In this document: positions 24,839-55,975 of the stretch, in pieces
How the letters are laid out: every line of letters starts with the position of its first letter
How positions within the stretch are numbered: position 1 is the first letter of the stretch
Origin: Escherichia coli
Lineage (GTDB): Bacteria; Pseudomonadota; Gammaproteobacteria; Enterobacterales; Enterobacteriaceae
Assembly: GCF_003334305.1 (NCBI RefSeq)
Contig: NZ_QOWS01000019.1
Length of the DNA stretch: 64,000 nt
Direction: 5' to 3' (one strand)
Program-made: the position numbers and the translations under genes
Notes under the pieces: model-generated
Seen by the model: the letters and a program-made list of their open reading frames with translations, nothing else
Told to the model about the DNA's origin: nothing
Databases searched by the model: none

Positions 24839-24870
24839 GCCTCCTGAAGTTCTTCGGGGAGGCTTTTTTT
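24839..24870. terminator. Rho-independent terminator hairpin at the finO 3' end
   Basis: gcctcc-tgaagttcttcg-ggaggc followed by TTTTTTT on the plus strand; overlaps the finO stop codon. Confidence 0.5.
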
Positions 24871-25429
24871 ATTTCTCATTAAGTACGGCCTGAAGTTCTG
24901 CCTTTATCCGGTTCTGACGGCGAATTTTCGCCAGACGCTCTGCCGCATACGCTTCCTCTTCCTGAGAAATATGCTCCGTTACATACCCTTCCGTGTCATA
25001 CCGGCAGGCACCGGCTTTCATGGCACACAGATAGCTTTCTGAACGGGTGATGGCCTTCAGCGCCCGGCGCAGTTTTTTATGCGAGAGCGGGATATTCCGC
25101 TGCGCCACGTCTTCCAGTAACACGTCCCGGATACCGCAGGCCAGAAGCCGGGGCGTGTCACCGTCAAATAATCCCGGCCACCAGGGCTTCAGGGTGTTCA
25201 CAGCCTCATCCAGCGTGGGCAGGTTCAGATAAATGGACAGCGCTTGTCTGGCCTGCGCTTTTTTTGCCGCCAGCTCTGCTTCCCGGGCTGCTTTCTCGGC
25301 CAGCTTCTGCTTTTTCACCTTCCATTTTGGTGGCGTGGTGACATTGATGATGGTTTTCCGGCTGCGGACAGGCGTCCCCCCTTCTGTTTTCCGCTTCAGT
25401 GTCAGTACCGGTCGCTTCTGCTCTGTCAT
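24869..25429 (-). CDS. finO: Fertility inhibition protein FinO (RNA chaperone for FinP), intact
   Basis: 186 aa from ATG 25429 ([14 protein letters not shown]...); no insertion interrupts the gene. Confidence 0.9.
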
Positions 25430-25483
25430 GCTGTGTTCTGCCTCTGACGAATCATCCTCTTGCGGCCAAAGATACCACACCCG

Positions 25484-26230
25484 TTACAGCGCCAGAACGC
25501 CCAGCACAGCCAGATGACAGGCATAGAACGTCGGGAAAAAATCTCCGGGCCAGAAACGGGGTAATGATTTCCCTGCACAGGACACCAGACCAACGGTCAG
25601 CACCGTCATCACAAGGCCGGCCACCGCCGCGGCATCACTGGTGGCAAGGTTAAGCGCCGGAATAACAGCCAGCAGGCATGCAACCAGCGCCAGACGTTCC
25701 GTTCTGTCTTCCGCCCGGTACAGCCGGTGGCTGACTGCCAGCATCAGCAGCCCGGCAATGCCGTAACTGGTGCCGGACAAAGGTCCCCACAGTGCCATCA
25801 GGAGAATGGCCGCTGCTGTACGCCACCCACTGCGCGTTTCACACCACGTCAGCACCTGTGCCGCCACTGCAAAGGCAAACAGGATATTCCCCTCATACCA
25901 CGGAAAGCCTGCCAGATAATACGCGAACTGGGCAATAATTCCCCATCCCCACAGCCGGTTAATGGCCGACTGCCTGATATGCGCATGGCGGGACAGATTC
26001 AGCCCCCACACCAGAGCAAACAACGGAAAGGCTCCACGCCCGGCCAGAAACATCCACGTCTGGTCCAGATGCAGAATGCGGTTTGCGTGGTCCAGTACCA
26101 TCAGCACCAGTGCCACCGTTTTGATGATATCCCGCTGTCCGGGTGACCAGACCAGCAACGACTGCAACCAGGTATCGGTCCGGGCAGCCAGTGAATCGTT
26201 ACGTGTCGTGTTCGTGTTATCCGTTGTCAT
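25484..26230 (-). CDS. traX: F-pilin N-acetylase TraX
   Basis: 248-aa polytopic membrane protein from ATG 26230; last gene of the tra operon. Confidence 0.9.
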   Translation of the reverse strand: MTTDNTNTTRNDSLAARTDTWLQSLLVWSPGQRDIIKTVALVLMVLDHANRILHLDQTWMFLAGRGAFPLFALVWGLNLSRHAHIRQSAINRLWGWGIIAQFAYYLAGFPWYEGNILFAFAVAAQVLTWCETRSGWRTAAAILLMALWGPLSGTSYGIAGLLMLAVSHRLYRAEDRTERLALVACLLAVIPALNLATSDAAAVAGLVMTVLTVGLVSCAGKSLPRFWPGDFFPTFYACHLAVLGVLAL

Positions 26231-26249
26231 CAGTGTTTGTCTTCCTGTA

Positions 26250-54605: not shown

Positions 54606-55007
54606 CTAGAGTGTATTAAATGTTATATCTTCCTCTTTATCTGCCTCCCTGAATATCTCCGAGTTATAAAAATCAGGAAACTTGATCAAATGATCAATAA
54701 CTCTGTCTGCAGCCTCATCTGTTTTACACCATCCACTACGATTTTTGGCTGCAATAAGTAGCTGGTTAGTTTCATCATCCAGACGCATTGTCAGATACTT
54801 AACCAGCGACTTACCATAGATATTCCCTGCCCTGTTAAACTTTGGATAGCGGTGAAGATGATCTTTAAGTCTTATTACTGCCTCAAACGATCGACTTCTT
54901 CCGCTTCTGTTACTTGCCTCAATTAATAGACTTTCCACATCTACAGGTAATTTTAGTTTTACCATCTTACCTGTTGCAGAACGTGTACCAAATCTTTTCA
55001 ATAACAC
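54606..55007 (-). CDS. traY: TraY (RHH DNA-binding relaxosome accessory protein)
   Basis: About 131-aa ORF with two tandem RHH-like repeats; start codon uncertain. Confidence 0.85.
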   Translation of the reverse strand: MLLKRFGTRSATGKMVKLKLPVDVESLLIEASNRSGRSRSFEAVIRLKDHLHRYPKFNRAGNIYGKSLVKYLTMRLDDETNQLLIAAKNRSGWCKTDEAADRVIDHLIKFPDFYNSEIFREADKEEDITFNTL

Positions 55008-55099
55008 CTCCCGCTGTTTATCTTCTGGTTACCACTTATGTTTGCAGAATAATCAGAAAAGGTAAATAGACGGAAAGTCTATATTTTATTAACACCTTA

Positions 55100-55789
55100 T
55101 TAACGCGTATTTATGATACACATAGCTTTCTCGTATAAATAATAAATAAACTTTTTATTGTAGAGTAAGATAATTAACTCATCTTTATTAGAAACAGAGA
55201 AGTAGTCGCATATCAGAGATGCGTGTTTCTTTGATGTGGAGATGGATATATTTAATATTCTTGCTATAGCATTATGACTGATTCCGGTGCTATATAAGTA
55301 AAAGACATCATTTACATATGATGATACAGAAGAATCATCACTCATTCTTCTGATTATATTTCTGATATCATCACTGACAATCGTTTTTTGATTATAACTG
55401 TCTTTATGACGAACATGAGCAGCATCATAAAATTGCCACAGAATAATATTTCTGTGTCCATTAAGAAATGACTGGACAGATATTGTCCAGAATCTGTTCT
55501 GAATAAAAACATCCTCTACAAGATTAAGATGCGTATGCTCATTCCTATATGCTTCCATCTCTGTGACAGAGATCAATTCACAAAAATCTCTCTGCGACAG
55601 AAGCCATTTTTCAGCACTTTGATCTTGTGTAAGAAATGACTCATGAAACAGCGTATTGCAAAAAATAAATTTTCCAGTTTCGTCCCTGATACAGGCTGGA
55701 TTTGGATAATCCTGAATAACTGCCGTCAGATTTTCCAGCAGATCTATTTGACGAGCATGTTTTTGTTGAATACGATCCATCGGATACAT
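55100..55789 (-). CDS. traJ: Transfer operon activator TraJ
   Basis: 229 aa from ATG 55789 (MYPMDRIQQKHARQ...), preceded by a GAGGAGG ribosome-binding site. Confidence 0.85.
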   Translation of the reverse strand: MYPMDRIQQKHARQIDLLENLTAVIQDYPNPACIRDETGKFIFCNTLFHESFLTQDQSAEKWLLSQRDFCELISVTEMEAYRNEHTHLNLVEDVFIQNRFWTISVQSFLNGHRNIILWQFYDAAHVRHKDSYNQKTIVSDDIRNIIRRMSDDSSVSSYVNDVFYLYSTGISHNAIARILNISISTSKKHASLICDYFSVSNKDELIILLYNKKFIYYLYEKAMCIINTR

Positions 55790-55862
55790 AGGAACCTCCT
55801 CACAAAGGATTCTATGGACAGTCGATGCAGGGAGTTCACGTCTCCCTGCATCGGCGATTTTC
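55782..55862 (+). ncRNA. finP: FinP antisense RNA (antisense to the traJ leader; boundaries approximate)
   Basis: Opposite strand of the traJ 5' UTR shows two stem-loops: one whose loop contains the anti-RBS ctcctc, then gatgcagggag-ttcacg-tctccctgcatc followed by GATTTT. Confidence 0.55.
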
Positions 55863-55975
55863 AATTTCAAATTTTAACGTGGCATTAACCACGTAATTAA
55901 TATACTAATTATCTTTCGTACTGTCACCTTTTTAAATCATAAAAACTCTGATATTTGAACGAAGTCAAATTTCTT

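Follow-up and report, generated by a model that had tools for sequence, protein, structure and literature searches.

The window analysed here is a stretch of 64,000 nucleotides of Escherichia coli DNA (assembly GCF_003334305.1, contig NZ_QOWS01000019.1) that carries the transfer (tra) operon of an F-like plasmid together with the two components of FinOP fertility inhibition, the RNA chaperone FinO and the antisense RNA FinP. From its sequence we identify the plasmid as a ColV-Ia virulence plasmid of incompatibility group F (IncF), belonging to the pS88/pAPEC-O78-ColV family and predicted to be self-transmissible. An original prediction, made for positions 24869-55870, held that an uninterrupted finO and the hairpins of FinP occur together on this plasmid, and that its transfer should be inhibited except after transient derepression. 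Those positions extend from the end of finO, at its stop codon, to where the mechanically called open reading frame that holds traJ begins, and they take in the whole tra operon, which lies on the minus strand. The features that matter for the argument are collected in Table 1.

Table 1. Features of the FinOP region and its surroundings in the window, in order of position.
Feature	Position	Strand	Basis or remark
CopA, antisense RNA of the IncFII (RepFIIA-type) replicon	23362-23453	+	Adjoins repA, tap and a replication regulatory gene
finO, RNA chaperone of the ProQ/FinO family (186 residues)	24869-25429	-	Translation; NCBIfam FinO model
traX, directly upstream of finO (54-nt gap)	25484-26230	-	Annotation transferred from pAPEC-O78-ColV (99.99% identity); tblastn with F TraX
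traA to traI, structural transfer genes	26250-54573	-	tblastn with F proteins; compared with F, all open and of full length but for trbF and traS
traY, first gene of the PY operon	54606-55007	-	NCBIfam TraY equivalog, 301.7 bits
traJ-traY spacer with the region of the TraJ-activated promoter PY	55008-55099	-	141-nt alignment 100% identical to F
traJ, activator of PY (229 residues)	55100-55789	-	NCBIfam NF010275 equivalog, 541.7 bits
FinP promoter-like site (TTGACG-17 nt-TACGAT), within the opening codons of traJ	55748-55776	+	Promoter scan
FinP antisense RNA, 79 nt: stem-loop I (SLI), GACA spacer, stem-loop II (SLII), GAUUUU tail	55783-55861	+	Rfam RF00107
traJ mRNA 5' leader, FinP target: stem-loops, ribosome-binding site GAGGAGG, ATG at 55789	55784-55894	-	Rfam RF00243
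traJ promoter-like site (GTGACA-17 nt-TATATT)	55899-55927	-	Promoter scan, 10/12 matches
traM, upstream of traJ, with relaxosome and regulatory roles	55976-56359	-	99.2% identical to F TraM; NCBIfam equivalog, 231.8 bits
sok antitoxin RNA	59864-60036	-	Leading region, beside a hok/Gef-family gene

The finO gene is intact. An ATG at 25429, within the mechanically called reading frame 24869-25480 on the minus strand, opens a finO of 186 codons that is free of internal stops and insertions. The NCBIfam FinO model (NF010317) covers the entire product (1-186/186, 360 bits, E 2e-108), and the crystallised FinO of R6-5 (PDB 1DVO, residues 33-184) aligns with an E value of 8e-95, with 147 of 151 residues identical and four substitutions. 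The claim that the gene is uninterrupted and encodes 186 residues thus holds as it was made. We compared the allele with four others, namely the FinO of R100 and of pO83_CORR, that of F as reconstructed and the R6-5 crystal construct. In this comparison of five sequences the window FinO retains W36 and the basic helices at its N and C termini without change. The N-terminal region and W36, which are needed for repression, are both present. Codon comparison with the three full-length alleles (F, R100 and pO83) gives ratios of nonsynonymous to synonymous differences (pN/pS) of 0.12-0.15, and finO therefore appears to be under purifying selection. A tblastn search of the window for a second gene with a FinO domain returned finO alone. 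The gene stands last in the tra operon, in the order traI-traX-finO.

The comparison with F bears out the statement in the original prediction that finO of F, unlike the gene found here, is disrupted by IS3. In the F sequence (NC_002483) IS3, whose ends read TGATCTTACCCAGC...GGGTAGGATCA, sits after nucleotide 396 of finO (codon 132) with an AGC target duplication; the match of the F finO frame ends at that nucleotide, where the IS3 end TGATCTTACCCAGC starts, and resumes about 1.26 kb further on, past the AGC duplication. Because IS3 splits finO at this point, F is constitutively derepressed. At the corresponding site the window reads TCAGAAAGCTATCTGTG with no interruption, and its locus is thus not of the naturally derepressed finO::IS3 type seen in F. 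When the insertion is removed in silico, the reconstructed F FinO differs from that of the window at five residues (E18G, L20P, D75E, D167A and D184N).

FinP and its target are recognised on opposite strands of the same DNA. The Rfam model of FinP (RF00107) scores 97.3 bits, where the gathering threshold is 45 (E 1.7e-18), and that of the traJ leader, traJ_5 (RF00243), scores 124.8 bits against a gathering score of 50 (E 3.5e-21) over model positions 1-109/109. FinP is predicted to take the canonical fold of two stem-loops, with an energy of -37.6 kcal/mol, compared with a mean of -17.5 for shuffled sequences (z = -6.46), and none of the 200 shuffles folds as well. Its SLII has a stem of 14 bp and, taken with the U-run, was scored as an intrinsic terminator too. 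The RNA is complementary to the traJ leader and covers both the GAGGAGG Shine-Dalgarno sequence and, at 55789, the ATG, which is the actual start of traJ rather than position 55870, where the mechanically called frame begins. On the FinP strand, a promoter-like site ends six bases ahead of the FinP 5' end, exactly as in the F sequence; on the opposite strand, the end of the traJ promoter-like site falls just ahead of position 1 of the traJ_5 match, and the start of the leader can be placed near 55894. Over the roughly 290 nt that hold the end of traM, the traJ promoter, the leader with FinP, the FinP promoter and the first 30 codons of traJ, a single base differs from F, and it adjoins the traM stop codon. 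The leader itself is identical to that of F and contains no mutations of the finP or fisO type. The antisense hairpins are therefore encoded at the traJ leader as had been proposed, and the co-occurrence of an intact finO with FinP is confirmed far beyond chance.

The -10 hexamer of the FinP promoter-like site shares bases with a Dam recognition sequence, GATC, at 55774-55777. FinP synthesis in the Salmonella plasmid pSLT has been reported to be under Dam control (PMC8136791), and control of the same kind here would make FinP levels differ from cell to cell.

Repression of traJ would be of little consequence if the transfer genes themselves were broken, and we examined their integrity by tblastn of 33 F transfer proteins against the window. 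None of the matches contains a stop, and identities range from 84 to 100%, with the exceptions of trbF, which is deleted, and traS, which is present as a different allele; among the F genes, these were the only two changes found when we looked for a disruption that would make repression moot. TraJ, TraY, TraA, TraL, TraK, TraB, TrbG, TraR and TraW are 100% identical to their F counterparts. By this comparison, every tra gene known to be essential for F transfer is open and full length, at 84-100% identity. We place PY in the traJ-traY spacer on the assumption that the established arrangement of F applies.

Several departures from F within the operon deserve mention. Only the last 23 codons of trbF match (39410-39478), and artA is absent between trbA and traQ (40515-40637); neither gene is known to be essential. 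The vapBC segment that F carries between traD and traI is also absent, and the traD stop overlaps the traI start (31520). The traS gene (34697-35200) is a non-F allele that gave no tblastn match to F TraS, and TraG (traG, 35215-38037) is 91.6% identical to that of F. Judged from these sequences, the divergence of traS and TraG suggests an exclusion specificity other than that of F, despite the F regulatory region.

All of the parts by which a FinOP system is recognised are thus found on this plasmid, namely a full-length FinO, FinP, a FinP promoter as far as its sequence can tell, traJ with its PY-traY target, and a finO gene in the distal position. The presence and integrity of these components can be read directly from the DNA. 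Because every sequence-level requirement is present, and because all of them but FinO are identical to F, on which FinP/traJ control was defined, FinOP repression is supported, and we estimate a probability of roughly 0.85 that this ColV-Ia IncF plasmid carries a complete and functional fertility-inhibition circuit. Low-level conjugation is likewise supported as a prediction. From the components we infer expression and repression, as well as the size of the effect, by reference to the established FinOP circuit (PMC5102898, PMC8136791, PMC7690428, PMC7555446).

In the mechanism that we propose, FinP would be transcribed from the promoter within the first traJ codons and would pair with the traJ leader, occluding the ribosome-binding site and the start codon. 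FinO, supplied from the far end of the tra operon, would shield FinP from RNase E and make the FinP-traJ duplex form faster. TraJ would then remain low, PY would be largely off, and most cells would carry no pili. FinOP cuts the transfer of F 10-2000-fold (PMC7555446), and in pO83_CORR, the best experimental analogue, deletion of finO led to a rise of about 100-fold in the expression of traK and traG and made a PY reporter active (PMC12491478). We would expect transfer of the present plasmid to lie tens- to thousands-fold under that of a finO-null derivative. Furthermore, a burst of high transfer is to be expected in fresh transconjugants until FinO and FinP accumulate; new transconjugants are thought to be transiently derepressed, a behaviour established for fin+ IncF plasmids (PMC3338210).

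The strength of repression is uncertain, given three allele-specific FinO residues and the lack of a hydrolase gene upstream of finO. It could be argued that FinO is intact and that repression is nevertheless weak or leaky, amounting to no more than about 10-50-fold or leaving the plasmid partly derepressed, either through low finO mRNA or through the changes E18G, D167A and D184N. Three observations weigh against strong inhibition and in favour of this argument. First, traX, with its stop at 25484, directly abuts finO, which starts at 25429, and no gene for a 286-residue hydrolase (orf286/uilS) separates the two. R100, in which a 286-residue alpha/beta hydrolase gene separates traX from finO, and pO83_CORR, which has uilS upstream of finO, differ in this respect, and the window therefore does not have a finO locus of the R100/R6-5 type. 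Second, the promoter scan found no consensus sigma-70 promoter directly upstream of finO on the minus strand; for this reason we assume that finO is expressed by transcription from further upstream. Third, three residues of the window FinO are peculiar to it among the five sequences compared: G18 (elsewhere E), A167 (elsewhere D or E) and N184 (elsewhere D). The N-terminal region in which G18 lies is required to repress conjugation (PMC7555446).

However, other evidence speaks against weak repression. The arrangement in which no gene stands between traX and finO is the same in F once IS3 is removed in silico. G18 falls in the disordered N-terminus, A167 in the C-terminal helix and N184 in the C-terminal tail, while W36 and the basic residues are conserved, and the change to A167 removes an acidic residue and is unlikely to harm RNA binding. 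Moreover, no fewer than 25 plasmids, of human, poultry and dog origin, carry the finO allele nearly unchanged, at 99.9% DNA identity or more, and the purifying selection noted above likewise argues against a failing protein. We regard weak repression as unlikely.

In 1992, van Biesen and Frost reportedly found that upstream sequence affects the level of finO mRNA and the degree of repression. The simple notion that plasmids lacking orf286 form a weakly repressed type was set aside; R100, too, carries the hydrolase gene. The classical ColV2-K94 may be derepressed in its natural state.

A still less favourable case is that FinOP is present and largely irrelevant, with transfer limited by a subtle tra defect, by the loss of trbF or artA or by host control (H-NS, ArcA, Cpx), and we consider it very improbable: the deletion of trbF, the absence of artA and the divergence of traS and traG relative to F, as well as the existence of tra-defective relatives such as pO83_CORR without traV-traC, can be cited for it, but the genes known to be essential are all full length and free of stops, trbF and artA are not known to be required, pAPEC-O78-ColV, which is 99.98% identical to the window, is typed as conjugative in PLSDB, and related ColV plasmids (pCVM29188_146, pAPEC-O2-ColV and a pS88-like plasmid) have been moved by conjugation (PMC3008734, PMC10385740). 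For plasmids of the pS88 and pAPEC type, a literature search found no measured transfer frequencies, and the reports give transconjugants only.

The FinO residues and the locus arrangement can also be considered jointly. It is conceivable, if doubtful, that the combination of a traX-finO junction without a hydrolase gene and the G18/A167/N184 allele produces weaker inhibition than in R100 or R6-5, or that this FinO also stabilises a second FinP-like RNA, from a co-resident plasmid. The FinO of Salmonella pSLT acts likewise on RepX. Weaker inhibition, if true, could aid the wide spread of the ColV-Ia lineage among E. coli of humans, poultry and dogs.

A functional FinOP circuit on such a plasmid is not in itself novel. 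The FinOP-repressed state is the long-known default of natural F-like plasmids, and the finding made here is already known and concerns an ordinary module. A survey of 256 MOBF12 plasmids found all classical group A members to be finO+ except F, which in this respect stands apart from other natural IncF plasmids (PMC5102898). Our own counts show how common the gene is: a finO match occurs in 3451 of 5426 complete E. coli genomes, and in 3896 of the 4008 matching E. coli replicons no less than 80% of the gene is found in one contiguous stretch. The F-type allele of the leader and FinP is found at 99% identity or more in 309 replicons. The present plasmid shows that the regulatory region of F also occurs in nature alongside an uninterrupted finO, in keeping with the published proposal that F in its original form was repressed (PMC5102898). 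In our opinion the main value of the analysis lies in correct annotation, in that the spread of this plasmid should follow the repressed-then-epidemic pattern of natural IncF plasmids and not the constitutive pattern of laboratory F.

The nearest relatives of the plasmid share this region almost exactly. From 21613 to 64000 the window is 99.98% identical in DNA to pAPEC-O78-ColV (NZ_CP010316), apart from one insertion of about 11 kb, and from 16000 to 40999 it is 99.9% identical to pS88 (NC_011747) in a single piece. The tra-finO region of both plasmids is 99.9-100% identical to that of the window, with practically no difference in the FinOP parts, and in both records the gene is already labelled "fertility inhibition protein FinO". 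The ColV-Ia family carries the iro, cva and colicin Ia genes, and the first 16 kb of the window, with its iro and cva genes, is identical to Salmonella ColV plasmids from chickens. The insertion of about 11 kb, present only in pAPEC-O78-ColV and situated outside the tra region, enters at 21613-21617 or thereabouts and brings tet(A)/tetR as well as genes for a transposase of the TnAs1 family and a chemotaxis protein; its flanks are 99.97-99.99% identical to the window.

More distant relatives illustrate how the components of the system assort. The plasmid pO83_CORR, from the adherent-invasive E. coli strain NRG857c, is like the present plasmid a colicin V-encoding virulence plasmid, and its TraJ has the accession (WP_000283385.1) that F and pAPEC-O78-ColV also have. 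Its FinO is identical to that of the window at 176 of 186 residues, and the plasmid has lost traV-traC and other pilus genes, in contrast to the complete tra operon of the window. At 32221-32838, far from the tra region, pO83_CORR encodes a second ProQ/FinO-family protein of 205 residues that has no counterpart in the window. In the classical repressed IncFII plasmids R100 and R6-5, FinO likewise has 186 residues and is 95-97% identical; its domain is the same, and its gene again closes the tra operon. The traJ/FinP allele of R100 is different, its TraJ belonging to another NCBIfam equivalog under another accession.

Some smaller features complete the description of the region. Just downstream of finO, the Rfam antisense RNA AS-pc02 (24440-24622, plus strand) lies opposite a reading frame of 70 codons (24519-24731); the annotations of R100 and pO83_CORR label the corresponding gene an ANR-family regulator. 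Two further Rfam antisense RNAs, AS-traI (28595-28671) and AS-traG (37233-37318), are found on the plus strand within the tra operon. The C-terminal part of TraD (about 31799-31824, in traD at 31520-33682) is polymorphic in length, and its repeat is longer in pAPEC-O78-ColV (729 residues in all) than in the window (720 residues), the protein of F having 717.

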